Position numbers and translations under genes: made by a program. Of a stretch of 64,000 bases of DNA, positions 23,659-64,000 are shown piece after piece. The notes below the pieces were generated by a model, which made no database searches, was not told the DNA's origin, and saw only the letters and a program-made list of their open reading frames with translations. Positions within the stretch are counted from its first letter, which is position 1; each line of letters begins with the position of its first letter. The stretch comes from Phoronis australis (taxonomy: Eukaryota > Animalia > Phoronida): NCBI GenBank assembly GCA_002633005.1, contig NMRA01000859.1, positions 32,424-96,423 on the forward strand, read 5' to 3'.

Positions 23659-26600
23659 ATGGCGGTAAATGTGAAGTTTCTTGTTATGTTTACTTGTTCG
23701 CAAGCGATTTGCTGGGCTTTGCCGTCTGCCGATAGCGCAGAAAACACAGGTATTCAGTATTTAGACAAACTGATTTCTAAATTACTCGTCTCTAGTATGA
23801 TTTTTGCTTGTAAGTTATGATGCCTGCTCAACGATGTTCAGCACTGATACAACTTTACAACAGTGTTAAGTCTATGTTGGTGCACAGGCGTCCTCAGCTT
23901 CTTTCTGATCGTCCCCAATACACTATTGGGGACGATCAGAAAGAAGCTGAGGACGCCTGTGTGTTGGTGGAGGTAGAGATGGAGTTCAGTAGCCGTGGGC
24001 GGTGCAGCTCTGAACAAAGTGGGTGCGACTGTAGCCCCCCCCTTCCAGCCCCCCTGTGGCGCACTGCCCATAGACCATGGGCGGCACACTCATTGAAAAA
24101 AGTCGGGGGGGGGGGGGGGGGGGGTNNNNNNNNNNNNNNNNNNNNNNNNNNNNNNNNNNNNNNNNNNNNNNNNNNNNNNGGGGGGGGGGGGGGCTTGATA
24201 ACTCCCCAGCCCCCTGGCGCCCATGGTAACGCTAGGACTAAATTGGTCTTTGCACCAAAATCTAGCATAAAATAACACGTTCTCATTTAAATTACATATG
24301 GCAATATCTCTCCTGATCTTGTGAAATCTTAATTTATTGAGGTTCTGCGTTATTTTAATTGTTATATCACTTATACGTTAGGCAACACGTAACCTCTCGG
24401 TTGCTGTGGGGCTACATGTTTCCCATTACTTTCTATGTGAATTTCATTCTGTGTATTTTAAACGGGCAGGATATAGTATCCCCGAATAAGAGGTTTTCAA
24501 AAACACCTTTTATTTAAAATTGGTCACTTAAAAATGCGCTCAGCGACCCAACTTTCTGGTTATGCACATGTCATTGATGGAGCTTAAGATGACTCAGGTA
24601 AAGATATCGAATTCCAACTACATTCTTCTAGTTGCTGTTGTCTTTAATTTTCACCGAGTTCGATAACCACGGAGAATTTCAATTTATGTTTTGTTAGATT
24701 CACCCATGATGTCCCGAATGCAAAATTTCACAGCACAAAGGAATCTGCCTCAGTCTTCCCTGCGCACTGCCAGGCTGAATTAAAATTCATGTAGTTGACT
24801 ACCTTATCCCTGCTAGCCTCCACTAAATGGACACAAACACTGAGTACTTTATGCTGGCATATATCAGTTCAGCGCCTCATGAGCAGTCATTCAGAATAGT
24901 AAGTCTACCTCATGAGTTGTGAACCTTCGGAGTATAGTGACATGTACATTTCATCAGTTTCAGGTCAAGGTAACAGTACATGGAACCCTGCCTGGTCGTT
25001 GACATTTCCCGACAGACCACTGCAGTTAGTGAGACCAGATTATCAACACAAGATTCTGGTTCTAGATGAAGAGAACATTAAGGTTATGTGATGTGACACC
25101 AGTACACTCTTACAATTTACCCATGATGCCCCACTCGCATTATTTCCCTGAGAGCAGACGTCAGCCTTGTTGACTGGAAAACATTGATGTGATGATCTCG
25201 TTGAGGTTTTAATATATCGCTAATAATATGACCATGTGTTTAGGGAAAGAGCAGTGTTTACTACTAACAAAAATATTTGCGTCGTGTTTGGAATTTTTGT
25301 TGTGGAGAACACTGAATATCGGAAATTATTTTTTTATTTGTTTTTGTGTGTATCACCACATTTTTATCGAAATTAAAGCTTTCTGATAATTTTAGAAGTC
25401 TTACACTTTTCATTTGTAAAATACTAATTCTTTGCATGAAGGTTACAAACTATGGTTATGGTGTAAATGGATTGGTAGTACATTCTTGTCGCTCTCTGCT
25501 GGCTCACATCAAGTGTTCTGCCTTCTGGGACATTTTGCTTTAACAGTGTGTGAAATAGCCATACATAACCTTAACTTAAAAAGATACCAAACCTGGTTTT
25601 GGCCAATTAACTCCCTAATTAAAATGACTTTCCCGTCCGATTTTCTGAAACAATATAATTAATGCTCTGTAACCCTCAAAAACCCTGAAAAGTTTGAAGG
25701 GAAGTTTGAAAACCGCTCTCATAGTCTACTAAACGGGCAAGCGTGGCCTACACTTTTAGCGAATTACGCGACCACTGTGGGGAAAGACCACCCACCAAGA
25801 ACCATAATATTCAATCTGTGACATGGGGAATACGAGTTGTTAGTTAATTTCTGCCTTTATCTTTCAAGATTGACACCAACGATGCGTTTGCAGGTGACAA
25901 AACGTCTATTAGATGAAATCAAAGTTTAGTAGTCTTTTGAAGCTGACCAATTTCTGGAAGAAGACGTGAAATTCACAAGTTTCAGTTTTATTGAAATTGT
26001 AAAATCAATGCAGGATCTGTCAGAAGGCATACTCAGAACTCTTGTTGAAACATCACACAATTTTGTTATCTTGACAGCGTTGTACAGCGTATGTATATCT
26101 TGGTATATTTCTTACCCTCGTTGATTGGTGTGAGGTGCACACATTTTGTGGCAGAACTTGACGCCTGTAAACTTGCCGGCTGAATGTGTTTTGAGTATAG
26201 TATCAACGTCTTTCTGTACTTGATTAACTAACACATTTACTGCATGACTTGTTATTTGTTCACTGCAGCAATATATTTTCATGTACTCCAGATTCTTCAC
26301 CATATGAGGGGTGCCGTGGCAACTGTTGCTGTGGTGGGCAAGTTCCACAGTGGCAAATCTTTCCTGCTAAATCAGCTGATGGGTAAGGTGAATGGGTTTG
26401 GCATTGGTCCCTATGTGAAGCCACAGACCATGGGCATTTGGATGTGGGGCAAGGTAGGCTGGTCACTTCTCCCCCACTTTTTCTGAGTATTGATTAAATA
26501 GGATCAGATGACAAAATGATAAAAACAATTGATTAAACCGGCTTGACATGTTTTGCCACGTGAGTAGAATAATGTTAATCTTTCCGTTATATATCATTGT

Positions 26601-29600
26601 GATTAATAGCTGTTTTCACCGTCACCGTCTTCATCTCGTTCATTATAGTTGCATGACAACCTTCATTCACTTTTTCCTGTGTCCTGTTTATAATTATTTG
26701 AAACATTTCCCATGATTCCTGTTCCAGCCTCTTGTGATGAAAATGGACAGTGGTGATGACATGTCTGTAATCTTCCTAGACACAGAGGGGTTTGCGGCCA
26801 CCAATGTTTCAGAGAACTATGACGCCAAGATCTTTGCTGTAGCCACTTTACTTAGCTCATACCTTATTTATAACTCAGTGAAAATCATCGACCAATCGGA
26901 TATCGACTATTTGGAGGCACTCGCTCGTCGCACTCAAGTAATTATTGCTTGTAAATTTGTATTTAGTAATAAATTGACTTGCACGAAGATGTAATTCTGT
27001 GGTATTGTATTCACAGGCGACACCATCTTGTATTGTGTCAGTAATTTTTTTAACATTAGGTAACACTTTACTTTGTTTTGTCCTTATTTTGTATAACAAT
27101 AGACGACAGTGTGCTGTGTTGTGTTGGTAATGTGTAAAACAATAGATGCACTGTCCTGTGTGATTTTTGACAGGCAAGCGCTCAAGCTAAAGAGTCCCAG
27201 ACATGCTTTTGTAGACATTAAAAAACTTACTAATTTTTTTTGCAAGTTTTGCATAAAAAATCATGTCATGGAAAATATGGAAATCTCCAAGAAAAAAATC
27301 ACAATTTTCGAGAAGAAACACAGTGAATGTTATTACAAACATCTGGTCATTGTTTTCAGGTGCATAATAAGATTCAGTGATCATCATGATAATGAATTTG
27401 GTCATTGGTAAAATTGACCCCAACTGAGCCTAGTTTAGGCTGTGTCAACTAATGTCTCTGATATTGTTTCACTAGTGTTTTCTTCATTTCAGCTGTTTGC
27501 CCTGAGGTCTCAGATGTCAAAGGCCAAGTGGACTCATGACTTTAACCATGATCTTTTGAGCTTTCCACCACTACTATGGGTAAGAGTTAACCATGGTTAA
27601 TGGATGTGTGAGATAAAGTCTGGGGCTTGTTTTACTACAATGTTGTAACTAACTGTTACAGAGGGTAAATGGAGCGCTAAATTTCTGTGGAGTCTCAATT
27701 TAGTCTTTTGAAAAAGCATCAAATGTTCAGAAAATTTTAGTGCAGTAGGCCCATTATCTGTTGAGTTTCCACAATTGTCTGTTGTAACTTGTTTGAATTT
27801 GTCTGAAAACAATTACCGTTTTTGGGGTTACACACTTAGTGAAAACCTCTGTGTAATATACCACATACAGTGACATCTATTGAGTAAAGTTAGCAGCCCA
27901 GCAAAAGTGAAGTTAAGAGGCCTAGCAGAATTAAGTGAAGTTACTAGTTCAGCAGAATGGCATCTTGTGTGTGAGTCACATCCATTGAACAAAGGATATG
28001 ACCAACTGAACGTGACGTGTGCTTAGTAATTACACTCATAACATGCAGGTCCTAGTGCTGAACTATTGAGTCACTGTTCTATTGGTTACAAGGGCCAGGA
28101 GAGCAGTCTGCTACTGTCAGTGGTGGCTGGTGCTGGAAAATGTGTTTCCAAAATAATCGCGTATAGTTAGTGAAAGTCACATTAAAAACAATTTTCTTTC
28201 CTCTTTAATAGCTTAACTCCTGTGTACTCCTTTGTTGGTATTTATAAACTTTATATTTATTTATAACTGTTGCTGTAACCACCTTTGCAATCTACGCTAG
28301 TGGTGTTACAACCTTTGATTCACTACCTTCTAGGTTGTTCAAGACTTTGTCCAGATGACAGAAAATGGGGAGAGTCCACAACAGTGGTTACATCGGCTTA
28401 TGACTACACATGCCAGAGAGAATGAAGACTACGAGATCAGTCTACTTGGTGCGGTGACAGTTTATCTATCAATAATTTAGACAAGTCTGAACACATAAGT
28501 ATGTTGGCATCTCTTTCACCTAGGTAATATTGTGCTCACTCTGCTCCACTAAAGTCACACACAAGAAGAACAGATCTCAAATACAAGAATATGTTGACAA
28601 GAGCTTATAATCTGCTAGGAGCCAGAATTCCAATACTGTCAATGATAGTCATGCAGACAGTGTCAACTATTTTGTTCATGTACAAGGAGTCATTCTTCTG
28701 ATACTATGATATCCAGTGTTAATGGTTTAATTACAACTTTACTCTGTACAGTGAGGAAACATAACATTATAATTGACTATTCCCAAACACCGGATCATAT
28801 CTTGTTCTTGGCTACACCACATAAGCTAGGTTAGTTTGAGTACCTGTTAAAAACACCCGGACTGGGTAACTTTCAATACCTGTTTGTAACACCTGTGCTT
28901 GGTTAGTGTTCATAAATCAACTATAGATGCAGCAGTGTGATATTATTGTTGTTATTCTGTGTGTAAACATGCCAAGTGCTAGATATTGTTCTATATTACA
29001 GGTATATTCAAGTCTGTTGAGTGTCAAACGCTGTTCCTGCCTGCAGTCAAGAAGTCGCTGTTGAGTGACTTGTCTCAGGCGACAGAGGCTGACCTGACAG
29101 AGGAGTACAGGCAGGAGAGAGATCAACTGATTGACATATTGAGGCGGAGCTTGAAACCAAAGGAGAAAAACGGTAGGATGATGTAACAGGCTTTGATAGT
29201 GTATTGAAGCTTGACGTATTTCGCTGACATAACCATGAAGGAAAATGTCGATTCATTTGTAAAAAAGGAACTTTTACATGGATGTTTTTATATATGTCAT
29301 TTCAATTTAAACTTTCCGGAAGCTGTGTGCTTGTCTGTCTGGCGTATCTTTTTTTAAATTTCTTCTTTCAGACCAGCCAATCACAGGACCTGAAATAGCC
29401 ACTCTCCTGGAAATATTGGTGAAAGCAGCCAATGAGGGCTCCCTCGCTGAGGTACCCGTAGTTATAGGTTGTTATGTCAGCTAGCAAAAGATCCACTGGT
29501 CGAGGTGCATTGAGGAGACTGGGGTTAGGTGTATGATCTCCCAGATGGTACCTCAAGTCGTGTGTTTACATCACATCCTTACAAAATCAGAATTAATAAG

Positions 29601-32600
29601 TTTTTGTTTGTTAAAGTTTCCGCTTTAGTTGTGCTATTTTCTGTCATATTTCAAGCCCAGCTCTAATATGTCTATTTAACAAACTAGCATTTTTATTCTT
29701 TTAACTAGATTATTAATTACCCATAATGCTGCTTTGCATTCGTATTCCTGTGTCTCTGTATTGAAAGATTCCAAGTCGATGGGACACTTTCATCGAGCGT
29801 CTTGAAGACGGTGCTACTGAAGACTGCCTGCTGTTTTATGAGGTCGAGATGAACACGTTGTTCAAAAAACACCAGGATCAGCCAGTGAATCCTTTAGAAC
29901 TGGAAGTAGGTTTGGCATGTGTGTATTACATAAAATTATGTAGGTTTGAAGTTTGTACATTAGACGTGTGTTCCTTTGACATGCGAATATTTGACATGCG
30001 TACGTTTTACATGCTATTTACATGCCTACATTTTACAATTTGTATGTTGTTTGACGTGCAAATATTTGACATGTGAACGTTTGACATGCATACATTTGAC
30101 ATGCGTATATTTGACGTGTACAATTTTGTAGTGTGTATGTTTGATATGAATGTGTTTGACATGCGCACAATTGACATGCAGATGTTTGATGTGGGTTCGT
30201 GCTTGTGTTCGTTTGACATATGTTTGGTGGCATGTGTTCACTTGACAGTGTGAATGCATGAATTTTTGACATTTGTGCTTTTGACACTGTACATTAGGCG
30301 TGCGTAGCATGATTTGATGAATTTTCTTGTAATAGTCATTATTTCTTAGAGTAGATATTTATATATTTTGCGCACTATATTCAATTTCATGACTTTAGGA
30401 TTATCTGCATTATCAATATGATGGTTGGCATGTAAGCAGGCGTAGATCCAGCATCTTGACAAGACCAGACATACGAGCCCCTTAAAGGGATACCAAACCC
30501 AGTTTTAGCCTATTAACAGGTATTAAAAACATTTTCCCATCCAGTTCTCTGCAACAAAATAATGCTCTGTAACTTTCGACAATCCCAAAAAGTATGGAAG
30601 AAATTGTGAAGACTCCCTTCAAAGTCTGCTAAACGGGCAAGCGCTACCTACTATGCTTTTATCGAATTACACGGCGGCTGTGGAGAACGACCACCAATGA
30701 CCCACCAATATACTGCCCGATCTGTGACATAGAGGGAGTTGATTCCAGCCCTTAAGTTGGAAGATTGACACCTATGATGCATTTTATTTAGCAGTTGACG
30801 TAACGAGGATTGGTTGAAATCATCAAAACAGGGTTTAGTGTCTTTTTAAGACTGCTCTGTTACTGGAGTGCAGACTGTAGCGTGTAGTCCGGCATGTAAC
30901 TCTGTGTAACAATCTAAGTCTAGATTTGGTAAAATGTTTGGTTTTCCCAACAAAACATCCACTGACCACTTTTAAAATGGTCTCATGTTTTTTCATAATC
31001 TATCGAGATTTTTGTTTTCATTATGTCGAAAACAAATAATTGGTATGTACATGTAGCATTTTTCTTTTTGGAATAGACATTGTCTCTTTTTGAGTGTGAA
31101 TTTAGAAAGAACACTCGTAAAATTTTGCTGTCTTTTTGATGTACTTATAGGTTTAGCACATTATGATTGATGAGTGTGTAATCTTGGGATTCTAATTCTC
31201 TGTTGATCAGGTTTCAGAGTGTTGCGGTACTTTGTTTGGTGTGCCTTATAAGCAAGCGACTCAACTTTCAATTTTCACGGAAAACACTTTTTGATGTAAC
31301 TTTTTTACTTACATTCATTTGGTACTTTTTAAAAGCACAACTGGTTGAATGAATAAATTTTCATCCCAATGGTTGTCTCCCCTGTTTATGTTGCAGCAGT
31401 GGCACCAGATGTCCTTTAACCAGTCACTGACTCTGCTTCAGCAGCTTCTGTTTGGGTAGTATAGTTCTGACATCTGTTAACAATTTTGTTTACTAACATC
31501 TCTTACCGTAGTGTTGTCATGTGTCTTCTGTTTTGAAAATTTAACAAAGAACTTCGTGCAAATTGCATTTTGCTGTATCTTTGTCAGAGCTTAAAGCTAG
31601 GATTTGAGGCTGGGGATTTGGGGGGCCTTTTTCGGAAATGTTCATTTAGTAGAAGTGATTTTGCGAGCACAAAAAATCTCACAGAGTGCTCTTAATCAGA
31701 AAAAGTGGTGGGGCTTTTTTGGAAACTTAATATAGCTTTGTGCTTTGCAAGTGCTAAGAGAGTGTCTCGGCATGAAATTTGAAAATTCTGATGGTAATTT
31801 GTTATTACATAGTTCTTAATTTTTGCTGACTAGATGATAGAATAAAAACTACTGTTTTGAAACATTGGTCATGTACTTGAAATGGCACCCCAATTTCACG
31901 TTTTTCAAGGGTTCAAACGGGACACTCTGGTGACGCCTCAGATCAACTATTTTAACAGTCTTTTAAGGACCCAGATAATGACATCATTGTTTATTTTTCA
32001 ATGACATTTGTTTCATGCCAGGCATGCAAAACAACACCAAAAACCCCATGGGGGCTTTTTTGATCCTTTTTCCAAAAGAACCCCCATGGGGGCTGTTTAA
32101 TGGTGGCAGCTCTTTCGGAAATCCCAGATCCCAGGTAACCATGCATGAACATCTTTCACTATGTCTTGGAATGCGAATGTGAATTGAGTGTGTTTGTTTT
32201 TTTTTTCTTGTAACTTTCCGTAAAAAAGGCATTGCTGCATTCTGTACATCAAATTTTTAATTTCAAGATCCGTCTTTCCCATCACAAGGTCCATCCTTCC
32301 CATCACAAGGTTCGTCCTTACCATCATAAGCTTCGTCCTTCCCATCACAAGGTCCGTCCTTCCCATCATAAGGTCCGTCCTTCCCATCTTAAGGTCCATC
32401 TTTCCCATCACAAGGTTTATCCTTCCTAGCACAAGATCCATCCTTCCTATCACAGGGTCCATCCTTCCCATCGCAAGGTCTGCCCTTCCCATCACAAGGT
32501 CCGTCCTTCCCATCACAAGGTCCGTCCTTCCCATCACGAGGTCCATCCTTCCCATCACAAGGTCCATCCTTCCCATCACAAGGTCCATCCTTCCCATCAT

Positions 32601-35600
32601 AAGGTCCGTCCTTCCCATCTGAAGGTCCATCTTTCCCATCACAAGATTTATCCTTCCTATCACAAGGTCTGTCCTTCCATCACAAGGTACATCCTTCCCA
32701 TCACCATGTCTGCCCTTTCTGTAACAAGGTCCAGATTCTCCATGAGCAGTCTGAGTTTTATATTCATTTGGATGATACATTAATTACTTTCTTAGTACAG
32801 CCATCACATTAACCTATCACTCTGAGTGTTCTCTGCTGACTGTCCTGTTGTATTCTTCATATCACCCAGTATTGCATTTTTTGTTCTGTTTTAAGTAGTA
32901 AAGCTACTATGTGCTGACTTTCTAACTTAGATTGAACCTGAGGTCTTCACTGATACCAAACACTGACTGCTGAGTTCCACTTACAGCTTGAAAGACACTG
33001 TGAAGGAAGCCTCCAAACTACTGCGTAAGGGCATCATGGAAAAGTACACACGCACCAGGGAACTGAATGTGAAGAAGATAAAATTGAAGTGTTCAGAGAT
33101 GCAGCACCAGCTGGAGGTGTGTCATCGCTGCATATCCTGTGATCATGTGTTAGTTGTTCATACATGAGTTGTGTCATCACAGCGTGTCATGTCATCACTG
33201 CGTGTCATGTCATCACATGTTAGTTGTTTGTGTATGAGATGTGCCATCACTGCATGTCATGTGGTCATGCGGTAGTTGTTCATGCATACATGTAAGTTGT
33301 GTTGGCTGCATGTCATGTGATCGCGTGTTAGTTGTTTGTATATGAGGTGTGCCATCACCGCATGTCCTTTGATCATGTGTTAGTTGTTCATACATACAGG
33401 TTTGTCATCACTACACATCACACGGTCATGTGATAGTTGTTGGAAGTGTGTGGTCACTACATGTCATGATGAGGTCACCTGTTGGGTGTTCACCGAGTGT
33501 TGACAGCCAGTTGTTTAACGGTCAAACTTGAACCTGAAGTGGCTAAAGCTAATATTCTTAATAGAAGGAAATTGAAGTTTATTGAAAGGACTCTAGATAC
33601 TTAGTACAACTCAACTGAGACAGCATAGTTTACTGGATGGAGATATTGAGGTTTTTGTAAAGTCATTTTTGCTAGCAGTCAGTTGTCCACCTTAGTCAGT
33701 TTATGTTAATGTTTTATTTCAATTTTGATATTTCATTCAGTTGAGTGCCGAGGAACACCTGTTGTCAGTGAACTTGCCAGTGGCCAGCTCAGAGTTGAAG
33801 CAGATCATCGCGGCATTCATATCATCGGCTAATGAGAAGTATGCAAGCCAGGTCAGGGGGTTATTGAACATCACAGAATATGAAGTGTATAGCAGTAGAT
33901 TGCAGGTGAGTGGATGGAGAGAGGAACAGATGATCACAGCATTGGTGTCACGAGCCAATGAACAACATATGCAGGCCTCATTGAGGATGTATGAAGTGTA
34001 GAGTACTAGAATGTAAGTGTAGAACACTATGGTGGTTAGTGGAGAGTGTTTAGATGTTCTCTGTCATGTTTCTGAAAGCAGAAAATGGAGAAGACTAAAC
34101 TGGGGTGGTTTTGAAATGGTCACAAAGGTGTGTCACTATAATGTTCTTGTGGTTGTTTGAATAATGATACAGTGCCTTGACAATACATTCCGTTATTTTG
34201 AAAAGTTACAATGGTATGCATCAGGAGACATGTAACTAGTGAAAACTTTGATGATGTGACTGATAGATTGGTAGGGTTGTCGTTCCTGCTAGGCACGTGT
34301 CCACTAGCCTTAGATTAGCTGACTGTTGGAAATATATCTGATGGTGATAACAGAATGTTTCCCCTATCTCATTGAGCAATCATTGTTCTTGCAGAGCAGC
34401 ATCACAAATATTGGAGAGACATTCCTACTGAAGAATAAACAATCTCTAGAGAAGATGCTGGATGAAGCTGTCACCGAGGCTGTAGGTAGGCTGATAACTG
34501 TTATACAGACTGTTGATTGGCTGACCTCTTCATACAAATTGTTGGTAGGCTGGCCCCTGTCATACACACTGTCAGTAGACTAACCTATGCATGAACGCAT
34601 AATCATCAAGATGATAGCAGATCACCTATTTTCAAATGCATCAAACTGTTGCTGTGCCTTCTGCACTTCGTAGTGTCATGTGGCCATATGTTTTCAAATT
34701 GGGCTTTTCAAGGATTGTGTGAATGAAGAACCTTAACTTTCTGGATGATATCTAAAGTACCAATGACAAATTTCACTGAAAGTTGCCACAGATGTAAAAT
34801 AATGAGATTGTGCCAGCATCATAAGATTTTGTGGCAAATCCGATAACTGCAGTGCCTCCTAGTGGCCATTTTTGTTTCAATTAAAATTGAGACAGAAGTA
34901 TGTGATGGCAATGGGGCATCTCCATTAAGTTTTCGAGCGTATTTGACCACTGCAGCACCTCTCAGTGGCTATTTAGTTTTGGAAATGAGGCTTTTTAAGT
35001 GTTTTTGGGGAAGAGCATTTCAGTCTGGATTATGTCTAGTGAACTGATTGATGGATTTCAATGAAACTTGACTCACAGTCGTGGTGACAACGTGCCAACC
35101 CCATTTGATTTTTGGGCTGATTCCGGTACTGCAGCGCCTCCTTGTGGCCCTTAGAAACATGTCGTAATGAGATGCACCATGGCTGTATGTCAGTGCTCTA
35201 GCATTCCTCATAGAATGGAACTCTCTGCAAAGTTTCAGAGCTATACTCCACAGAAGGGGTTTCAGTTTACTTGTATGGGCTGCTGCCTTTAGGGGAAATG
35301 TTTGAAATAAAGGACACCTCTAAAATCTATGACTGTTGGTCATGCACACGGTGGGTCATCACGTCAACACTCTGGGTATGATGCACACAGTGAGTGCATG
35401 TTGACACTCAGTGCTGTATGTGATGTACATCATGACTGTAGTGTGGCTGGAAATGATGTTTTGCAGGCCTTATACTCACCAAAGTGAAAACACACGGTGT
35501 GCGCCCTCTGACGCCAGTTTCTCTGGAGCATGAACTGAAATCAATCTGGGAGGAAGCAAGTCTGTTGTTCACGTCCCATACAGCCATGGCTCAGAGTGAA

Positions 35601-41600: not shown

Positions 41601-41622
41601 GCTCTGGCTCATTGGTTTCTGA
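23659..41622 (+). CDS. Guanylate-binding protein (GBP)/atlastin-family large GTPase, 19 exons, 794 aa
   Basis: Exons: 23659-23749, 24964-25082, 26292-26453, 26728-26937, 27493-27579, 28334-28448, 29002-29172, 29372-29451, 29768-29905, 31397-31455, 32987-33116, 33741-33905, 34395-34485, 35467-35633, 36494-36568, 38154-38239, 39036-39139, 39974-40116, 41431-41622 (2385 nt, all GT-AG, phases consistent). Motifs: VAVVGKFHSGKSFLLN (G1), QTMGIWMW (G2), FLDTEGF (G3), LLWVVQDF (G4 position), then a long helical region. Confidence 0.9.
24126..24179. other. Assembly gap within a poly-G tract of a short GC-rich repeat
   Basis: Run of N flanked by G homopolymers. Confidence 0.95.
25660..25930 (+). repeat. 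Interspersed repeat; second copy at ~30560-30830
   Basis: Shared taatgctctgtaac...ctaaacgggcaagcg...gaattac...tctgtgacat...aagattgacacc. Confidence 0.7.
29960..30290 (+). repeat. Degenerate ~15-bp minisatellite (tttgacatg core)
   Basis: Repeated tttgacatg/tttgacgtg cores just after GBP exon 9. Confidence 0.85.
32268..32735 (+). repeat. 21-bp minisatellite (aggtccgtccttcccatcaca)n
   Basis: About 21 units in GBP intron 10. Explains the spurious (MGRTDLV)n ORF. Confidence 0.95.
33113..33480 (+). repeat. Degenerate ~52-bp tandem repeat starting at the GBP exon 11 donor
   Basis: Unit gag|gtgtgtcatc...gatcatgtgttagttgttcatacat. Confidence 0.8.
36680..37255 (+). repeat. Degenerate ~52-bp tandem repeat (ctgattggNcagagtat..ctggctggaggtca)
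   Basis: Two clusters (36680-36770 and 37060-37255) in GBP intron 15. Confidence 0.7.
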
Positions 41623-42624
41623 AGCTCTTGTCTTTTTGTGTCAGAAACTTTCAACAGAACATTTCATCAAATAGTCAACTTTGCTTGATTGTGCAGCAAG
41701 TTACAAGTCTTCAGTAATGGCTTGCGCGAACTTGTGTTTACCATGTCAGATACGTTTTCAGCGTGTTGTTTGAAAGGCATAGCTCTGTATAAAATGTAAG
41801 CAGTGCCCTCTGTCACCATGAAATATGTTGCTTCGGATCTGCGGTGGGTTTTCATTAACCTGTAAAGACTGGGTTCCTGGTAACAGTTCCAAATAGAGAC
41901 TCCACTGCCTTGCACTACATTGGTGGACTTGTCAATAAGTCAGAAGTATTGCAATAAGAGAATGTCGTTAGTCAGAGAAAAACTCACAACAAGGTATACT
42001 GATGGACAAAAACAGCTCCAGCAAATTTAGAGAACTTTGTCAAGTCCGTATTTGGGACTATAGTGCGTCATGCAGACAGTCACTTGTCTCCAGTGATGGC
42101 AATATCAAGGGGCTCGTTTTATCACCACGGTCATGTTACTAGTGGGTCGTAGCTCAGACCCCATTATTCTAGATTTCCACTTTGGTTTGTGAACGTAACT
42201 GGAGAGTGTGATTACCGTCTGTGGTAAACTTTTAATGTTAACTTAAAATGTTAGTCATTACGCTTAGTTTTGATGAAAAAACCTAGGATCTCTTGTGTTA
42301 ATACATGATTGTCTTCAAATATCCTAGAACATCACATATTTTCAAGTTACCAACTTCAAAAATTGATTTTCAATAAAAGAGGCTCCAGGTAGCTTCAACA
42401 TGTATGTGTTTTGTGAAGCTATTCGTGATAAATTGTGCATAAGTTGTGTGTCAAAACTTATACCAAAGCTAATCTACAGAACTACTGCAATGGCAAGATA
42501 GTTTTCAAAGCAATCGATGTTATCAAGTTTTAACATTCTGTTCTAGAAACTCAAGAAAAATTCCAAGCTAAAAATTCCACTAGGCAAATCTCGATCTCAG
42601 GACTCGAAACTTATTTTCGATTAA

Positions 42625-44100: not shown

Positions 44101-52163
<8,063 letters not shown>

Positions 52164-52558
52164 ACTTGCAGTCTCCTTCTAACACAGTTCCAAAAGCCAC
52201 GTACCATCCAATGTGTACGGACCGGAACTTGGCGAAATTATAGAAAGCTAAACTCAGTTAATATTATTCGACCCCTCCCGCACAAAACATTTGAATCTTT
52301 TAAATATCTTAAAAACCTATAGCAAAATTGAAAAAAAAACAGAAAAATTCGGCACTTTAAAAGTTGTTTTGTATACAATTTTACATTTTCATGAATATTT
52401 ACAGGAATAAAATTGTAAATGCATTAATAAGTGTACTCAAATATAGGGAGTGTGTTTGTTTATTCGCACCACTCGCCACGTACGCATAACTTGTCTCGTT
52501 TTCAAAAGTCAACTGTAATCGGTAAACTACGGTAACGTCCGTATATTTCCGAATAAAG
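52164..52558. promoter_or_regulatory. Bidirectional promoter SURF4 / TADA1
   Basis: Divergent ATGs 395 bp apart. ETS-like accggaa at ~52221 and YY1-like aagatggc overlapping the TADA1 ATG. Confidence 0.75.
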
Positions 52559-55500
52559 ATGGCAGCCCCCTTGGACTTGTCGCAGGCGAAAGAAAACTTA
52601 GCCGAAGCATTGGGAGATAGAATGAAGCAGTACGTTTTATTCGAAGCAATTTTGTCAGAGTTACTTAATTTTTTTCACATTATTATTTAATGACACATTT
52701 TCTCGATTCATTTGTCTGATAATCTTACTATGAACAGACATAGTCTTGCCCGAAGGCGACGGCGCACAGGATTGTGGGCCTTCTCTGACTGTTGTTGCTC
52801 GAAGATCTATTTCTGATAATTTAAGTTATAAGTCTATGAGTCAATCAATACACGAGTGAATGTAATAAAAACTCTGGGAGGGATGTGGAAGGGCCAGAGT
52901 AACATTTAGTGCTTAGCCTTAGGCTTAGTAGGCCTCTGCGGGTCTGATGTCACCCTGCCTAGGCAATGGCAATGGCCATTGCCTCTGTTCTGTTGGCTAG
53001 ACCAGAGGCGATGCAGCTCCTATGGGCGCTCCATACGCCGGAAGCTTTTCGGCGAATTATGCCTCGCTCCGACAAAAACATTAAAGTCACGTTGTTATAA
53101 ATACCTTTTGCGCATAGAGGAACACCTTAGGAGGTTGTCGATGTGTATAATTCCTTCCAACTCGAACAAATACTCCCGTTAGTGTTAAGTTTCTTTCGCA
53201 GGTATGAAACAAAGCCGGGATTTGGTTTTTACATATTGAGAAAAGATGTTTTCGAAAACTGAATTTGTTTTATAAAATGAGAGTGACACACTATGTAGGC
53301 TGCGTGTCAATTTTAAATCACGCGCCGTCGTTTGTCATGCGTTATGATGTGCGCTAGCCTGAACCATGGGCGCTTAATGGGAAATTCTCAAAGGTTGAGG
53401 GGGAACGCTTAGTAAATCAGTGACCGCTTATTACAAAACACTTCAAAGGTAGGGAGTAGGCTTGTGCGTGAGCATTGTCGTTAACCTGAGTGTTTGCGTT
53501 AATAAGATATTAAACAACTGCAATGGTAAGAAACGTTTTAATATTATGATTTTGCGAGACAAACTCCATCGAGTATAGGGGGGACTTTCTGGATATCGTT
53601 ACCACCTACATTATACCCTTTTTAGCCACCCCGAATAATTTTGTTTTTAATTACCCGCTTCAGCCGAAACAAAAATGTTTCTAGTGGAGTGTGAACATTT
53701 TACGGCGACGGTGGTCCGGGAAGCGAAAACTTGCCAGAGAGAAGAGAAGAATAAAAAATCGTTGACCACAATTTCACATCTAGTACCCGTTTAGTTGCAA
53801 CAGCTGGCTATGGGCATAGAATATAGGGTTTAGGGAACATCGACCTCGTGAAACATTGTCACAGGAAATATCAGTTCTGGATTATACCGGTCCCGGGGAA
53901 TATCGTAAAGCATCGGGTCTTTTATAACCGCCGGGAATCTATGAGTTCATTTTCAAATAAACCACTGGCACGTACCCGGGTGCTTAACAGAGCCAAGCCG
54001 GTATACTCTTTCATTTAGTACTGTAGCTGTTCTCTTTTGATTTGCAGCTTTGAAGTCCCCCCACTTTAATTGCTGGAGCAGGCCTACACTTAACATACGC
54101 GCACCCAGCCTAAAATATAGGGGGGCTCGAATTTTTCCATATGCAGACCTGTTACTGAAAAAAATCAACGAGGACCAAAAAACGGGGCCATTAGGTTCAG
54201 GCTTGCCAATCGTGCATCCGCGCCGAATTCCTGTGGACTTCGTGAATTTTTGTCTCGTTTACTCAAGGGACTTTTTGTTTCACTGAGGCAAACTTTTTTG
54301 CCCAATTCGCCAATTCGCTCCGATCCCCCCTGGATGAGCCCATTATTTACGCTGGCAGCAACGTGTGAAAGTCAAGTCATATTTCGCTCACGTAGCCCTA
54401 GAAATAAGGGGTTAGATAATTTCTTGGTAACTGAAAGTAAAGACGTGGCCGTCGCTTGGCGATTAATAGGGTTGTCATTTTCACTTTCAGTGGCGGATTT
54501 AGAGGGGCGCCATGCCCCCCCTAAAACTCTCCCAGATTCCATTTGGCAGTTCGGAGGTGCGCCTTCTGACGGGCAAAATCCTGGCTAATACTCTGCCCTG
54601 GCCTCCCCCCTAAATAAAAATCCTGGATCCGCCCCTGACTTTGGCTGTCATTGGCAATAAAAAACGAGACGCACATCTCCAAGTCACGATTTTCTGCCGG
54701 GACCGCTTGCGCGCTAACAACGGGACCGAACAGTGCCGCAGTGCCGGCAATATCAGGGATGTTGTCGTAGATATTTGGTACAACATGTAATAAGGACATC
54801 TTACGCAAAAAATAAACATATCTGTCCACCAAAAAGTTTGATAAGTTGATCGCTTAAGAATTAGTGGAAACACTGCCGTGTTGTGACATTTTATCACGTG
54901 TTATGCAGTGGCCTGAAACTTTCCGGCCCGAATCCGGAAACTTGCAAAAGTTGCCGGAAGTGTTAGCAAATGAAACGCGTCAAAGATCGATTCTGCATAT
55001 CCCATGTTCACGCGACTTGCTGACATGTACAAGTCATCGGGAGGGCTGTTCTCGGTTGGCGTTCTTTTGAACTTGGATTTGGAAACACCCAAATAACATT
55101 CGGATTAAAAAGGTTTCCTTCGCCTTTAACAGCAAAATTATGATCATTATGGGAACAAAATTATTATGACCGTTATGCTGAATACATTTTATATCCATTA
55201 TGCGGACAAAATCATTATTGTGACCATTATGCAGACATAATTGTTATGACCATTATGCGGTCAAAATTATGACCATTATGCAGGCAAAATTATGTCGATG
55301 ATCATTATGCGGACAAAATTATGTTTATGACCATTATGCAGACAAAATTATGTTGATGATCATTATGCAGACAAAATTATGTTTATGACCATTATGCGGA
55401 CAAAATTATGTTGATGATCATTATGCAGACAAAATTATGTTTATGACCATTATGTGGACAAAATTATGTTTATGATCATTATGCAGACAAAATTATGTTG

Positions 55501-58500
55501 ATGACCATTATGCGGACAAAATTATGTTGATGATCATTATGCGGACAAAATTATGTTGATGATTATTATGCAGACAAAATTATGTTTACGACCATGATGC
55601 GGACAAAATTATGTTGATGACCCTTATGCAGACAAAATTATGTTGATGACCATTGTGCGGACAAAATTATGTTGATGATCATTATGCCAGGCGTGCGTTC
55701 AGTAGACGCTAGGACCTACGCTAGGACCTAGCTAAAACCTAGTCAAAGTCACGTGTTCTAATTTATAATGCACGACAATATCTCGCGTAATCTCGCGAAG
55801 TCTTACTTTTCAGCGAGGTCCTTGTGTTACTGAACGGGAGGCACATTTCTTCCGAGAAGTGTAAAAACTCAGCTCGTATACGTTGGAAATTTCAGGTCGC
55901 ATTTAGCGACTTGATACGAGCTGACAAAAATCTCAGCTCGCATTTCCAAATTTCAGGTCGCAAATGCGACCTGCAGCTTGTTATGTCGAGCCCTGCCAAA
56001 TTGGCAACTGGCCATGTTTACACTGCTCAAACCAGGAGACATAATTTCATAAGGAAGGTTTTAGCACATTTTCCCCAAATGTTACCCTGTGTCTATATTC
56101 TGGACATAGCCCTTATCTACGCCCACTGGGTTTATCTAATGATGGACGTGTCTTCATCTCACCACTTTCTGAGTAGTTTTTAGGCTTTAATATTGAATTG
56201 CTAAATGTAATTGTATACTACAGATGTCGCTGTTGTATGTGGTCCCGTAACTGTGATGCGTCCAAGGCATATAGACTGTGTGTTATTGTCTGCTTTTAAA
56301 CGTTTCACTTTTGCTGGAGGGAAATTACTCTTGAAAGAAATTCAAGCTCTGATTTTTGTTGTTTTTTTTCAGATACATGGAAAATCTGAAGTTGTGGTTC
56401 AAACAAAAACAAAGCAGGGACCAGTTCGATATGCAAGCCCGGAAGATGTTGACATCTGACATTGTCCACCTTCACAATGAGTTTCTACTGGCCATCTTGA
56501 CAAAATGCCAGAGTTTAACACCCACACTAGGTACGTGAATGTGTTGGTGGATGATCATGCCCTCGGATGAGTTTGCGAATAAGTCTAATAACTGAGAGGT
56601 ACTGGGTAAATGTGGAAGATGATTTGTGCATGACACTTTAGCTCAGTCGGGAAGGTATGCTGATCAAAACTGTGTACTGTATGATGTGAGACAGTGATTT
56701 ACTGGAGCACCACCTAGTGACCATTTAAGTTTTCTTTGGTCTTTCCTCAATATTTTCCAATTGTCTGTGATATTTATAATCTAGTTTATGGAATTTTATT
56801 GTGAAGGGCATGGGTGTCATTGATGTTACGACAAATTCGTCTACTGTGGCGCCCCATATTGGCTATTGTGTGCGCCTGCCTAAATACCTACCATGTTCGT
56901 TAATGGGTCTTTATAGTGTTTGACATGTATGTTCCCATTGAGGATATCATGACTGTTGGTGTTGGAGTTTATATGGATATGACTACTGTTGCACCTCCTC
57001 GTGGTAGTTTTAGGGTTTTATGTTTACTTCAATGTTTGTCAAATCCTATGGTGGATCACCATGAAAATTGTCAAGTTGTTAGTTTTTCGGGTGGATCCGA
57101 TGAATGCTGTGCCTCCTGGTGGCCACTTCCCCACGATGTGAAAATAGTTATGGAACTTGACTTGTATGCTTGTCATATGACAGCATCTGTCAATATTAAA
57201 AGAAATCTGTTAAGTGCTATGCCATCTAGTGGCAGTGTTAGTTGTTTTGTCGTCTAGGTCTTTCTGTTAGCACTTGAGTGATCCTTATGAAATTGAAAAC
57301 TTAATGTTTCTACTACTAACAGATAAGACTGGACCCCATATTTTATTGCCTAATAACCTGTACTTCTTGTGGCAGTTGCAATATTTTGTTGTCCATCATA
57401 GTATCTACCAAAACCTCTTTTAAAAATGTTCGTAGAATTCAGCTGATATGTTTTCCTTCAATTTTTTGACGACTTGCTTTGCACATCCTGGAGACTATTT
57501 TAAGTTTTCAAGTATTCCGTGCTCTATTGTATGCAATGCACACACTGGGTGCATATGAGTGTTCTCCATTACTTTTGTTGATCATTGGTACCTGTCACTT
57601 TGTTCCTTTAAAGCGATTCCCTTTTCTTGCCTGAAAAGTGTCAGATTTTGTACGCCGAAATATCCGTCATTATTGATTTAAAAGTATTACTAAGTATTTT
57701 TCGTTGTATTTTTTGTATCGTATGCAGAAATGTCTACATTGGTTGTGCTTAATGATCCATAGAAATTGAATACGAGAAGTAAGTTCTCAAATTGTCGACA
57801 GATTGCGCAGAAATTTCTGCACTGAAAGATGTGCAAAACTTTCCGCATTGAGGGAAGGGCAGTATGGACAATATTTACTTTAAGCCAAAATGATGGCATA
57901 AAAAGGAAATCGATGGAATTTACCTTTTAAAATGGAGAGGCTATGTTTTGGTAATTTTTTTATTTAATTTCAGTCCCAAAGGACATGAACACAAGTGCTC
58001 TACCAGTTGCCAAGGTTATTAAGAAAGGAACAAAGTTTAAGAGGAAGCCAGTTGGACGCTCTCTACAGGTTTGGACGTTTTTGTGGTGAAGAACTTCTTT
58101 CAGTTGTAGCATAGAAAACAGAATTTATGAGGTCTGTTGTGAAATTGTTCAACCAATCAATGATAAATGTAATACTGAAATAAATCTATAATGATATCTG
58201 TGTGAAGTGCTTGGTCACATGCCGGACACGTTTGTGATATCAATGTGAAGTGTTCAAGACATTCACATACAGGACATGTCTCTGATATCAGTGTGTATTG
58301 TTCATTTGCATGAAGGACTTGTTCATGATATCAATGTGAAGTTTTCATTCATGTACTGGACATGTCTTTGATGTCAGTCTGAAGTGCTCATTTACATGCA
58401 GGACTTGTAGATGATATCAGCGTCAAGTGGTCATTTTTGTGCATGACACGTCTATCATACCAGTTGGAAATGTTCATTCGCATGTCAGACACATCCATTA

Positions 58501-61500
58501 TATCTGTAAATTGTTCATTAAGTTGTAGGTGACAACTATCATGTCAGTGGTGAATATTTATTCAGTAGTATGGAACACATCTTTAGTGTTTACATGGTAC
58601 TGTCCATTCAAATGAATGTAGCATATAACACGTCAGTGAGCATTAATGTTATTTGTACAAGTGTAGCGCAAAAACATATTTGACATTGTTGCAGAATTGT
58701 TTGTGTAGCACACAGCTCACCTTCAAGATCTCAATTGTAGTAGCGCCACTAATGGTTAAGCCAACTTAACTGTGTTGTAGTCACTGAGTCTCACCAGATC
58801 CTGTTCCTGGCACACCAGTCTAATAATAATAATTGGAAATGTGCTCTTCTCTATTCTAGCGGTTCCAGCCAGTTGACCCCATGTGTTTTGTGGCCAAGTC
58901 TGATGTCCTTGCTCCACAGAAGGATATCCATTTAAGTAAGACAATTTACCATATTGCCCCAGCTTTTAACCTGCCTCTCGAGTATACGCCAACTTCCCAC
59001 TTTTTGCCTATTTTTGTGTAAATAATGTACCACACCCATTTTTTCACAGGTATTAAGCGCACCCATCCTTAGTATTCACCCTCTAACACTTCTCAGTACA
59101 CAGTGTAAGTTCACTTTCTAGCACCCCTCAGTTCATGGTATCAGTTCCCATCCAAGGGTATTACCACAATTCCTAGTACCCTCCAGTTTATTGTATCAGT
59201 TCCCATCCAAGGGTATTACCACAATTCCTAGTACCCTCCAGTTCATGGTATCAGTTCCCATCCAAGGGTATTACCACAATTCCTAGTACCCTCCAGTTCA
59301 TGGTATCAGTTCCCATCCAAGGGTATTACCACAATTCCTAGTACCCTCCAGTTCATGGTATCAGTTCCCATCCAAGGGTATTACCACAATTCCTAGTACC
59401 CTCCAGTTCATGGTATCAGTTCCCATCCAAGGGTATTACCACAATTCCTAGTACCCTCCAGTTCATGGTATCAGTTCCCATCCAAGGGTATTACCACAAT
59501 TCCTAGTACCCTCCAGTTCATGGTATCAGTTCCCATCCAAGGGTATTACCACAATTCCTAGTACCCTCCAGTTCATGGTATCAGTTCCCATCCAAGGGTA
59601 TTACCACAATTCCTAGTACCCTCCAGTTCATGGTATCAGTTCCCATCCAAGGGTATTACCACAATTCCTAGTACCCTCCAGTTCATGGTATCAGTTCCCA
59701 TCCAAGGGTATTACCACAATTCCTAGTACCCTCCAGTTCATGGTATCAGTTCCCATCCAAGGGTATTACCACAATTCCTAGTACCCTCCAGTTCATGGTA
59801 TCAGTTCCCATCCAAGGGTATTACCACAATTCCTAGTACCCTCCAATTCATGGTATCAGTTCCCATCCAAGGGTATTACCACAATTCCTAGTACCCTCCA
59901 GTTCATGGTATATGTTCACGTCCTAGCTCCTCTTGGTCCATATCAATTTATCTTTTTCTTTCTCTTTCATCCTGTCCAAGCACAAAGGTGCCTACCAGGA
60001 AAAGAAATCTGGCAGCATACATGAATGTGTGATACAAGCCCATGGTCCACCTAGGTATAAGCCTGCTGCTGTGTTTTCAAGTCCCAAATAACGGTCCCTT
60101 GGGTTTATACCTGACTCTGGTAACCTGAGTGGTTACAGTATTTTTGAAGCACGTCATTTATTAACTGTACAATCCATTTGTGGCAGTTCCAAAGCTGGTA
60201 AAACACTTGAAAAGTCAGTAAAATGTAAAGTGTTTTACCGGCTTCAGCATTGTCTCGTTTTATCTGGTCTCGACACATGTCACTTCAAACTATTTGTGTC
60301 AGTTTATTCATTGAATGAAGTTTAATAGATCAGTATGACCTCACTCTCCAATAATAGGAGTTTTGGGATATCTTTTATGTGGGGTATTTTTGTCTGGGGA
60401 TCAATGTTCACGTGGCGACTTTCTGTTTCTATTTGAGAACTTATTTGTATTACCGTGTTCATCCGCACACAAAGTTTTTTCCCTGACACATCTAGTGGGC
60501 AGATTATGCGAGACCTTTCTCTTGTATTTCAGCATTCTGTTCTCGCGAGAAGTCTCTCCCTGACACATCGATGGTTTATGGACGGATGTATGTCACCGCG
60601 TGGGAAACTGATCTGGAGGAAGTTGAAGATGAGGCTGTCAAGTTGGTCATGGAGGCCGTAGAGGTTTGTGATTGGTTGATTCGAAGAAGGCTTAAGGCCA
60701 GAGTCACACTGCTGTGGAGTGTTATTGGTTGTACATGCACTTCTTACTCTGGGTTAGAGGCTTACACTGTTTGGTGAATGAGTTCAGGGAGGGAGGTCGA
60801 GTGAGGTTCTTTATTGGTTGATCAAATGAAGGTCAATGGTAAGGTCATGGGGTCAATGTAATTTCTCAGTTTCCTTGAAGTAGTTGTGTGAAAACTCTAG
60901 AGGTCTGATGGGATAGTTGACATGTCACACTGTTGGCCTTTCAGGACTCAGAGCACTGAATCATGGGGGGGTCCTTTTCAGTTTCATGCAATCCTTGTTA
61001 TCGGTGCATTATGTCCAGTTTGGGGACTGTCTGGCGTCCGCTGATGTATCTCCTAAACCCTTGGTGAATGTCCATGAATGTTATGAGACATGTTCCTGTC
61101 ATGGATGGATTCTACTACCAGCGCGCTCACTGGTGGCAATTTTTTATTTTATTAGGTTTGTCGCTGTATCTTCGGAGTTCCTCGACAGATTTTCATAAAG
61201 TTTCCAAATAAGTATCTGATAGCTAAAGGAGAGGCTGTGGTTTGGCGCCTGTCTCTCTTTCAGCCAAACTACTCTTAACTGTGATTGTGACTTTGCATTA
61301 TGTGTTTTACTGGGAAGACGACAGCTGACAGTGATTTTTGAATGGCTGACTACCTACTAGGTGCCTCCTAGGGGTGGTGCGTCGGCAGCTGTACGTCGTG
61401 AATGTCTTAGAGTACATGGTCATCACCAACCAGTACATAGGGCATCACCAACCTCCTAGTTCCAGCAAATGTTACGTTATATCCAAAATGTCATTTCTAT

Positions 61501-64000
61501 CAAGTGTTGTTGACATGAACGTTTGTGGTATTTAAATTGTTTATGACTTATACTTCCTCTCAGTTACCTGCTCATTGAATTTGAAGTCTCGTCATCTCTT
61601 GCCTATTTTTGTAACAAACACAGCTGCAGGATTCTGCGAGTGCAAAATGGGCGATCAAGAGAAATCAAATTATATTTTGCAAATAAAATTTACCTTCATC
61701 CTTCGGAAGCCTTGCAAGGTAACAATTTGTGTAATTTTAAAGAATGTTATTTGAAAATCGAATTGCGTCCGGGATGTACCAAGTCGCTGGATCTTGCGCC
61801 CTTTTTAATTTCAGTGCATGAAAACGTATAGAGACAGCGTTAACACTGTGTTTAGTGTTGACCTGAATTAGAATACATGTTGAGACTACCGCTACTCCTG
61901 CTACTTTCGACAGCTCTTAGCTTTGCATGGAATGAGTCTCCTGCAATCTGAGAAACTGAATTGTCTTTCTATTCTGTTTCAGGTTCATCTTAAAAATGTG
62001 ATATCGTGTGCCATTCACCAGCGTAAGGGTTATCACCTGCGAGAGGGCAGGTTTAAGTACGCCACAGGTGATGTCATACAACCGTATCTACGAAACAGTT
62101 CACTCATACAAGATGGTGCCAGGTGAAGTGGTCTTATTAAGTGCTGTTAGTTGCTTCGTTTAACAACAACAAAAATATGTCAACAGTTTACGGACTCTGA
62201 GGTCTTACATGGCAATCCATAATTACAGGGTGTCGTTTAAGTACTCTTTGGCCCCACATGGAAATGTATAATTAGTGGGGGGGGGGTTTACTGACTCTGA
62301 GGTCTTACATGGCGACCCATAATTACAGGCCGTGGGTGTACTTTATGTACTCTTTGGCTCCACATGGAAATGTATAATTAGGGGAGATGGTTTACTGACT
62401 CTGAGGTCTTACATGGCAACTCGTAGTTACGTGAGGGTGGTATATAGACTCAGAGGCCAATAAGACAACTCATGTTAGGTACAGGAAGATAAGATTAACA
62501 GCTAAATAAAATTCAGAATTCCTTGTTGAAGTCTGGGCTGGTAAACTTTTTCTTTTTACATTTATTTCTTGTATAATGTGGCATGCCAATTAGTTTTTGG
62601 AATTACCATTTTCATGTTACTCGACTTTTGAGCTCTTTCACTGATTCCTATTTTGATAGCTCCCTCATGCAGAAGTCAAACATGGCTGTTTAAACAATGC
62701 CTAACATCATTTTGAAGAACAATGCGTAAAACATAGTAACTTAGACTTTCCTGAGAGTCTGATTTGCTGAGAAATGATGATCTAAAAGTTAGCCAGGTTT
62801 GGTCGTTTTTCTTGGGTCTATTAAAACTGCAAGTTCTTCAAACGGCTCCCTTTCGGTGGCAGTGAATGGTAGTGTTTTTTAATAGTCTCACGCTGCTTGG
62901 TTTGTGGTGGGTCGCATATCTTGACAATTGCATGCTCCACATGAACGTGTTCTCTGGTTTTCTCGCTTAGTTTGAAAATTTGTCTACATACTTCCCAGCT
63001 TATAGTTGACCTTTCAGGATTTAGAAGGGGCTAAGGGGGAAAGGGCGCCCCTTAATGTGAAGGACTACATCAATATGAATCAAATATGAAGTGGAAAAGA
63101 GTGACATTTAATTCCTTCATTTGGTGACCCTCGAACTGGTGAATTTCATTAAGGGCGCCTGTTGTAAGTCCTGTTGTGTCTATGTCAGTATCTCTCCTTA
63201 TCTAGTGAGGTTACATACATGACAGGTCGACTACTCCTCTTCTAAACCCTTCTTTGTCTATGTATAATGTTTCTCCCCGCCTTCTTGTGAGGCTGCTTAC
63301 ATGACTGGTTGTCTAGCCCTGCTCTATGCTGTGTTGTGTCTGTGTGTTAATGTATCTCTCCCATTCTAGTGAGGCTGCTTACATGACTGGGTGTCTAGCC
63401 CTGTTCTATGCTGTGTTGTGTCTATGTGTTAATGTATCTCTCCCCTTCTAGTGAGGCTGCTTACATGACGGGTTGTCTAGCCCTGTTCTATGCTGTGTTG
63501 TGTCTGTGTGTTAATGTATCTCTCCCCTTCTAGTGAGGCTGCTTACATGACGGGTTGTCTAGCCCTGTTCTATGCTGTGTTGTGTCTGTGTGTTAATGTA
63601 TCTCTCCCCTTCTAGTGAGGCCACTTACATGACGGGTTGTCTAGCCCTGTTCTATGCTGTGTTGTGTCTGTGTGTTAATGTATCTCTCCCCTTCTAGTGA
63701 GGCCACTTACATGACGGGTTGTCTAGCCCTGTTCTATGCTGTGTTGTGTCTGTGTGTTAATGTATCTCTCCCCTTCTAGTGAGGCTGCTTACATGACTGG
63801 TTTTCTAGCCCTGTTCTATGCTGTGTTGTGTCTGTGTGTTAATGTATCTCTCCCCTTCTAGTGAGGCCACATACATCACAAGCTGTGGCGCACACGTTCC
63901 CAGCATAAAACCCTCAGTGGAGACGGGCCAGGGAGATGCTGCAAAACACATTGCATGTTCCGGGAACCACATGACCCCCACAAGGCCCCTGAACCTGTAT
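52559..64000 (+). CDS. TADA1: Transcriptional adapter 1 (SAGA subunit), 3'-incomplete
   Basis: Exons: 52559-52629 ([24 protein letters not shown]), 56373-56530 ([35 protein letters not shown]), 57974-58068, 58860-58935 (RFQPVDP), 60533-60663 ([15 protein letters not shown]), 61983-62122 ([21 protein letters not shown]), 63862->64000 (..IACSG..PLNLY). Phases are consistent. Confidence 0.93.
55135..55686 (+). repeat. 29-bp minisatellite (cattatgcggacaaaattatgttgatgac)n
   Basis: About 18 units, more homogeneous towards the 3' end. Confidence 0.95.
55690..55842 (+). mobile_element. MITE family A copy in TADA1 intron 1
   Basis: ggcgtgcgttcagtagacgctaggacc…ggtccttgtgttactgaacgggaggc; matches 5850-5990. 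Confidence 0.75.
58190..58560 (+). repeat. Degenerate ~43-bp tandem repeat (tgatatcaatgtgaagtgttcattcacatgcaggac)
   Basis: About 8 decayed units in TADA1 intron 3. Confidence 0.75.
59118..59911 (+). repeat. 55-bp minisatellite, ~14 near-identical copies
   Basis: (cagttcatggtatcagttcccatccaagggtattaccacaattcctagtaccctc)n. Confidence 0.97.
62186..62480 (+). repeat. ~100-bp tandem repeat, about 3 copies
   Basis: gactctgaggtcttacatggc…tactctttggcNccacatggaaatgtataattag. Confidence 0.85.
63170..63876 (+). repeat. 82-bp tandem array whose unit contains the TADA1 exon 7 splice acceptor
   Basis: Unit ends tctctccccttctag|tgaggc. Acceptor positions 63205, 63287 (mutated to TG), 63369, 63451, 63533, 63615, 63697, 63779 and 63861 (the true one). 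Confidence 0.95.

Follow-up and report, generated by a model that had tools for sequence, protein, structure and literature searches.

In a 64,000 nucleotide (nt) stretch of the Phoronis australis genome (contig NMRA01000859.1, positions 32,424 to 96,423 of the forward strand; hereafter 'the window'), the introns of three genes contain copies of their own exon-intron boundaries, each unit joining the region of a splice site to a part of the adjacent exon. The genes encode a GBP-family GTPase (23659..41622, + strand; 19 exons, 794 aa), SURF4 (44101..52218, - strand; four exons, 270 aa) and TADA1 (52559..64000, + strand; seven exons visible, the gene being truncated by the end of the window). 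All three have open frames, and they carry six, two and three such sites respectively, two of those in GBP being borderline. Judged by their sequence organisation, the sites can be assigned to a class of repeat already named 'mirage' minisatellites (PMC3087553), although the initial annotation of this DNA knew of no named system for them. The structure is known; what is new here is a count made with controls, according to which a copy accompanies approximately one junction in five, with a two- to four-fold excess per duplication event and none per base. The copies are likely to be innocuous remnants of ordinary local duplication, with a modest over-representation at exon edges.

Boundary copies in the GBP, SURF4 and TADA1 genes

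All statistics refer to this one window, in which the three genes have 54 junctions and 27 introns, the latter comprising 33,461 nt. At each junction, a query of 40 nt of exon and 40 nt of intron was aligned to the neighbouring 600 intronic nt, only alignments that crossed the junction being admitted, and the score was compared with those from 300 dinucleotide shuffles. A junction-spanning copy outscored the shuffles at p ≤ 0.013 in 11 of the 54 cases, where around 0.7 would be expected by chance. Seven of these are donors (GBP exons 5, 11, 12, 13 and 17, SURF4 exon 2 and TADA1 exon 5) and four are acceptors (GBP exon 15, SURF4 exon 2, and TADA1 exons 5 and 7); nine are clear and two are borderline. 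The first copy lies at an offset of 30-324 nt over the 11 sites, and unit lengths at the nine clear sites range from 30 to 142 bp, differing from site to site. The exon part of the units varies between 3 and 43 nt, and is often small; there is hence no fixed breakpoint at the splice site.

The exon numbering of the initial annotation agrees with our models when GBP exon 1 is placed at 23659-23749. Eight of its approximately ten main sites were recovered (the acceptors of TADA1 exons 7 and 5, SURF4 exon 2 and GBP exon 15; the donors of TADA1 exon 5 and GBP exons 11, 12 and 13), but the GBP exon 11 acceptor (p = 0.46) and exon 8 donor (p = 0.23) were not significant in the shuffle test, and nor were the weaker cases proposed at GBP exons 2 and 4 (four junctions, p = 0.19-1.0). 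The SURF4 exon 2 donor (p = 0.003) had not been listed previously, and neither had single copies at the donors of GBP exons 5 and 17. Decay had been described as running from near-identical to barely visible, and this is borne out by the alignments, in which the eight 82-bp copies of TADA1 exon 7 stand at one end of the range and scarcely recognisable sequences at the other. 'Pervasive', however, was too strong a word for a feature of around one junction in five, when most intronic arrays (19 of the 25 detected without gaps and 28 of the 39 detected with them) lie away from junctions.

At the TADA1 exon 7 acceptor (63157..63886, + strand), the 82-bp unit consists of approximately 57 nt of intron and 25 nt of exon-derived sequence. 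The authentic acceptor, at 63862, is preceded by eight copies, seven of which retain the AG. In six inner copies, 55-57 of the 57 nt agree with the end of the authentic intron, while the two outer copies have decayed to 34/57 and 26/57. Seven copies have a common exon-derived part, matching the copy at 63534 at 23-25 of 25 nt, and the real exon at 17-20 of 25. From this pattern we infer that an old duplication may have been followed by re-expansion and homogenisation, which would have included the working acceptor tract.

The SURF4 exon 2 acceptor (48093..48227, - strand) is accompanied by a 71-bp unit that includes 43 nt of exon and retains the AG, with a fainter piece farther upstream, and the donor of the same exon (47817..47880, - strand) by a 35-bp unit with 9-10 nt of exon and a retained GT. 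The remaining sites all lie on the + strand. In GBP, the exon 11 donor array (33113..33484) has a unit of around 52 bp that starts at the donor and includes no more than 3 nt of exon, and two of four scored copies have kept the GT; the exon 13 donor (34477..34592) has approximately three copies of a 30-bp unit with 3-8 nt of exon; and at the exon 15 acceptor (36043..36503) there is a decayed array, with units of 34-62 bp whose last part is the initial 10 nt of the exon. A decayed copy of the end of GBP exon 12 (33890..34019) is found around 111 nt downstream of its donor (p = 0.010, or 0.003 for the exon part by itself). TADA1 exon 5 has a single decayed copy of its acceptor 77 nt upstream, which has lost the AG (60446..60543; p = 0.003), and one of its donor 142 nt downstream, in which the GT is retained (60658..60847; p = 0.003). 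The borderline cases are two single copies: one, of the end of GBP exon 5, lies 204 nt downstream of that exon's donor (27567..27787; p = 0.013, or 0.003 for the exon part by itself), and the other, with the GT lost, lies 324 nt downstream of the exon 17 donor (39130..39472; p = 0.007). Being single and distant, these two may be chance matches.

Background duplication and the excess at junctions

Tandem duplication is common throughout these introns. Examples of arrays that have no contact with a junction are a 21-bp minisatellite at 32260..32743, one of 29 bp at 55128..55687 and a near-perfect 55-bp repeat in 14 copies at 59075..59926. Measured per base, the junctions do not stand out: at a score threshold of 16, copies were found at 11 of 54 junctions (20%) and at 18.3% of 2736 intronic pseudo-junctions, as against 6.3% of 780 positions that lie beyond these genes, and at a threshold of 18 the figures were 10 of 54 junctions and 16.2% of intronic pseudo-junctions. 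At none of four thresholds were the 54 junctions enriched over the intronic pseudo-junctions. Counts per event were added because this control counts long arrays, the mirages themselves included, many times over.

A search blind to gene positions detected 25 ungapped tandem clusters in introns, compared with 0-2 segments in shuffled sequence. Six of the 25 span a junction, when 1.6-2.7 would be expected under uniform placement (P = 0.004-0.036). With gaps permitted, the numbers were 11 of 39 clusters, with 3.9-4.2 expected, and 10 of 30, with 2.8-3.0 expected (P = 0.0002-0.002, with present intron lengths). These null expectations assume uniform placement and take unit lengths from the detected period, the gapped version being restricted to units of 15-120 nt with hits more than 330 nt apart dropped; a cluster in the 3' region of GBP (42664-42798) was removed from the event counts, as it is not intronic. 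The per-event excess is thus 2.3-3.8-fold with present intron lengths. The initial annotation had staked its claim on junction duplications being more frequent than the background; per base they are not, and per event they are.

The reading we favour, and hold to be probable, is that the copies arose by ordinary local duplication and survived where they left one exon intact, the excess at junctions having come from shorter ancestral introns and slower decay. Tandem copies of a boundary-spanning unit would be made by slippage, unequal exchange or repair. As the unit covers only part of the exon, one exon would remain intact and the extra copies would come to lie in the intron. The exon-adjacent copy would stay functional, through exon definition at acceptors and through first-site choice at donors (as reported for human F7), with the decoys ignored, and the copies would afterwards decay neutrally, or re-expand and be homogenised as at TADA1 exon 7. 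The two- to four-fold excess per event would then probably stem from introns having been shorter at the time of duplication, together with a slower loss of similarity where the original is under selection. The initial annotation had posed two possibilities, a splice-anchored duplication process or random duplication that survives where an exon stays intact, and it is the second that fits best, given the lack of per-base enrichment, the lack of exon-exon copies beyond chance, the exon parts of 3-43 nt and the many arrays away from junctions.

Several observations agree with this reading. The excess disappears if an effective intron length of 300-400 nt is assumed (P = 0.73/0.45 for ungapped clusters; 0.62/0.26 and 0.32/0.10 for the two gapped sets); the present median is 981 nt, and the shortest introns are 199-316 nt long. 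The 19 non-junction arrays are found closer to exons than chance would place them (median 139 versus 247 nt, P = 0.023), as is expected if the middles of introns are younger. In a simulation with a protected original exon and splice site, junction copies were 1.2-1.4 times more detectable, a figure obtained with a single anchor and hence an upper one for cluster counts.

The significant excess of junction-spanning clusters, both ungapped and gapped, nevertheless weighs against our reading, as does the amount of intron growth that it requires. The short-intron explanation needs half to two-thirds of the intronic DNA to have been added, and the dispersed repeats demonstrable from the window alone amount to 2250 of 33,461 intronic bases, far below this.

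It is accordingly worth weighing whether duplications form more often at exon edges, through lesions coupled to transcription or splicing (R-loops, polymerase pausing, nucleosome edges) and local tandem repair. We regard this as unlikely, though it has some support: detection bias covers just 1.2-1.4-fold of the 2.3-3.8-fold excess, several units start within 3-10 nt of the junction (GBP exons 11, 13 and 15 and the SURF4 exon 2 donor), and the arrays away from junctions also lie near exons. A broken short-chain dehydrogenase (SDR) gene in the same window has no copies at its eight junctions at p ≤ 0.013, a number too small to test; these junctions were scored but, on account of the broken frame, excluded from the enrichment counts. 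Set against such a bias are the absence of any per-base excess, the variable exon parts and the fact that short ancestral introns would explain the same per-event excess. The window was, furthermore, selected for the pattern, such that the counts are biased upward. Were the excess to hold genome-wide, it would indicate that duplication is biased towards exon edges, which would bear on both intron growth and intron gain. That marine invertebrate genomes have a mutational bias towards short tandem duplications at the exon edges of transcribed genes is, to our minds, doubtful; if true, mirages would not be peculiar to lancelets but would be a widespread means by which introns grow, and would continually furnish cryptic splice sites, being met here at around one junction in five.

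Use of the copied splice sites and age of the introns

RNA runs were chosen by species label, and the reads come from three other individuals. Authentic joints were found for all three SURF4 introns and for GBP introns 11, 13 and 17. The authentic donors of GBP exons 11, 13 and 17 are supported by 11 reads and one contig, 37 reads and 22 reads respectively, the SURF4 exon 2 donor by 115 and its acceptor by 183 (two rows of equal skip length). Authentic sites are therefore in use at five of the 11 junctions with copies, the TADA1 sites and those of GBP exons 5, 12 and 15 lying outside the RNA joints shown. None of the 15 best-supported joints uses a decoy site; a further 47 weaker joints fall outside this count, hence low-level use is possible, which is a point against the decoys being wholly ignored.

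That the copies are maintained because they function as decoys or alternative splice sites, or that they are intermediates of intron sliding or gain, is improbable. In its favour, mirages have been proposed as a route to new introns (PMC3087553), and a GT or AG is retained in 18 of 26 scored copies, slightly more than the 56% or so expected from the decay of the flanking sequence, though the score itself favours such copies; decoy sites have therefore not been purged. However, use of any of the 17 decoys checked would lead to an early stop and a truncated protein, and the first offsets are divisible by three in four of 11 cases, which is the chance level and shows no preference for frame. Frame-preserving alternative splice sites are ruled out by these two results, and in the joints shown it is the authentic sites that are used.

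The history of SURF4 exon 2 also argues against a role in intron gain. Its boundaries are found at the same positions in other animals, at 24 acceptor and 23 donor genomic loci, with a comparable repeat at none of the 24 acceptors and one of the 23 donors. The echo sequences of the window themselves had no match in 70 loci of other animals. Of these 70, 57 were examined, with split and partial matches excluded, and 27 had genomic flank; many are near-duplicates, and so the counts are not independent. Since the boundaries are old and mostly free of copies elsewhere, the SURF4 exon 2 echoes are lineage-specific additions to old introns, and not the origin of those introns. In an unrelated animal (L002:2027-2300), the SURF4 exon 2 donor has a repeat that takes in 3 nt of exon, begins at the donor and recurs 246 nt downstream (p = 0.01). 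In a SURF4 protein tree of 45 rows, 44 of them drawn from the 240 matches listed (named invertebrates and the top unnamed rows), the window protein joined no supported group; among those rows, the best identity was to Lingula (81%) and the best bit score to Ptychodera. No protein named as Branchiostoma was present among the 240 and a further 10 matches listed.

Across 32760-52700, the RNA reads are mostly 90-99% identical to the window and have many fixed exon differences; either polymorphism is very high or the label also covers a related species. In the 3' region that separates GBP from SURF4, a contig from another sample lacks 36 nt of a 33-bp array (42664-42798; joint 42708-42745), and a 49-nt tandem duplication at 43599-43647 is represented by 41 reads in one RNA run. 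Short tandem duplications therefore segregate in the host species.

Template of the copies

The units consist of unspliced exon-intron sequence arranged head-to-tail. Spliced exon-exon copies were not found in the 27 introns beyond chance, the one intron in which such a match was recorded (p = 0.02) owing it to the same stretch as the GBP exon 5 donor copy. A window self-BLAST lists 20 dispersed pairs, none of which links two echo sites; the initial annotation was hence right that no one transposable element family is involved, and this candidate is rejected for want of any sequence common to different sites. Together, the unspliced head-to-tail units, the lack of exon-exon copies beyond chance and the lack of common sequence point to local duplication at the level of DNA.

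A template in RNA, be it pre-mRNA or mRNA that was reverse-transcribed and then inserted next to where it came from, would account for the copies adjoining their source on the same strand, yet it is very hard to credit with the units unspliced and head-to-tail, and an mRNA-templated origin is rejected on the absence of exon-exon copies beyond chance. Equally implausible is an assembly artefact in which haplotypes of a polymorphic genome were stacked in tandem, for although RNA of other individuals is mostly 90-95% identical to the window, most copies are far more diverged than alleles (as in the 17-20 of 25 nt shared with the real exon at TADA1 exon 7) and show graded decay; the copy number of near-perfect arrays may nonetheless be wrong.

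Gene models and genomic setting

The window has a G+C content of around 40% and 39 tandem-repeat rows. Seven of eight translated pieces matched Pfam families, with a GBP domain on GBP exons 3 and 4, SURF4 on the SURF4 product and SAGA-Tad1 in TADA1. From its translation, with a hydrophobic N-terminus and C-terminal end and a long helical region between them, the GBP-like protein would appear to be a membrane-anchored form. Intron 1 of SURF4 (48136-52112, - strand) is of the GC-AG type, and is backed by the 183 RNA reads mentioned above. It contains an inverted pair of 430-bp sequences, 80% identical (49826-50256 and 51385-51824), to which RNA reads map on both strands; these are likely to be copies of a dispersed element. 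The starts of SURF4 and TADA1 face away from each other, approximately 340 nt apart (head-to-head, within 52113-52629), an arrangement likely to reflect a bidirectional promoter.

The SDR gene (7504-16161, - strand; Pfam adh_short) has in-frame stops and a frame break in exons 1-2, and is probably a pseudogene. Self-BLAST matches around it (1-443 with 14486-14933 at 87%; 4873-5587 with 16448-17248) suggest a tandem paralogue or a local segmental duplication. Within its second intron, at 12347-13918 on the + strand, are decayed reverse transcriptase and GIY-YIG-like frames that, from their translation, we take to resemble a Penelope-like element. At 18183-19623 there is a 322-aa open reading frame with what is presumably a THAP-like N-terminus, with transposase-like pieces close by.

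Relationship to known systems

The mirages of the Adh3 gene were reportedly first described by Canestro et al. in 2002 (PMC117041, as cited in PMC3087553 and PMC3902484). In amphioxus, they have been recorded in Adh3 and the globin genes BflGb6 and BflGb9 (PMC3087553), and in PGBD5 and the troponin C gene (PMC3902484). According to these accounts, unit lengths range from 10 to 160 bp, both 5' and 3' boundaries are affected, and splicing is normal (PMC3087553, PMC3902484). The sites in the window agree with what is described there in having tandem units across the exon-intron boundary, at donors as well as acceptors, with locus-specific lengths and a GT or AG in many but not all copies; a boundary-spanning tandem unit was recovered at six sites in the search that made no use of gene positions. 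Concerted evolution has been described in the amphioxus clusters, with inner units homogenised and edge units diverged (PMC3087553), and the TADA1 exon 7 array has the same arrangement, in a comparison that covers this one array. Most copies here differ from those of the amphioxus globin genes, which are given as 81-100% identical, in being older and more decayed, and are closer to the imperfect ones in PGBD5. Junction-spanning copies can mislead gene prediction, as is reported for the lancelet PGBD5 gene (PMC3902484). The literature covered, which leaves out most subscription journals, held no genome-wide count of mirages, and none outside lancelets except that in human F7.

In the model of intron gain by tandem genomic duplication put forward by Rogers, a new intron forms from duplicated exon sequence (PMC3443670, PMC3265369, PMC4974935; cited in PMC3087553). 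Our sites share with the model the local duplication of a stretch that contains a splice signal; they depart from it in that only existing introns have grown, the SURF4 exon 2 copies lying at old positions. No new intron position had been created by duplication at SURF4 exon 2, the sole site at which this was tested.

The human F7 gene offers the third comparison. Its intron 7 contains a 37-bp variable number tandem repeat, the first unit of which spans the exon-intron boundary; the pseudo-donors downstream are described as normally silent, the most upstream donor being the one chosen (PMC1557585). The position of the first unit is the same in the phoronid arrays. Whereas the F7 repeat is presented as a single locus, on the donor side, with copies identical at the splice site, here several loci are affected per gene, acceptors among them. 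With seven spare AG acceptors, six of which have a near-identical upstream tract, the TADA1 exon 7 array offers a natural experiment on how a 3' splice site is chosen, as F7 does for donors.

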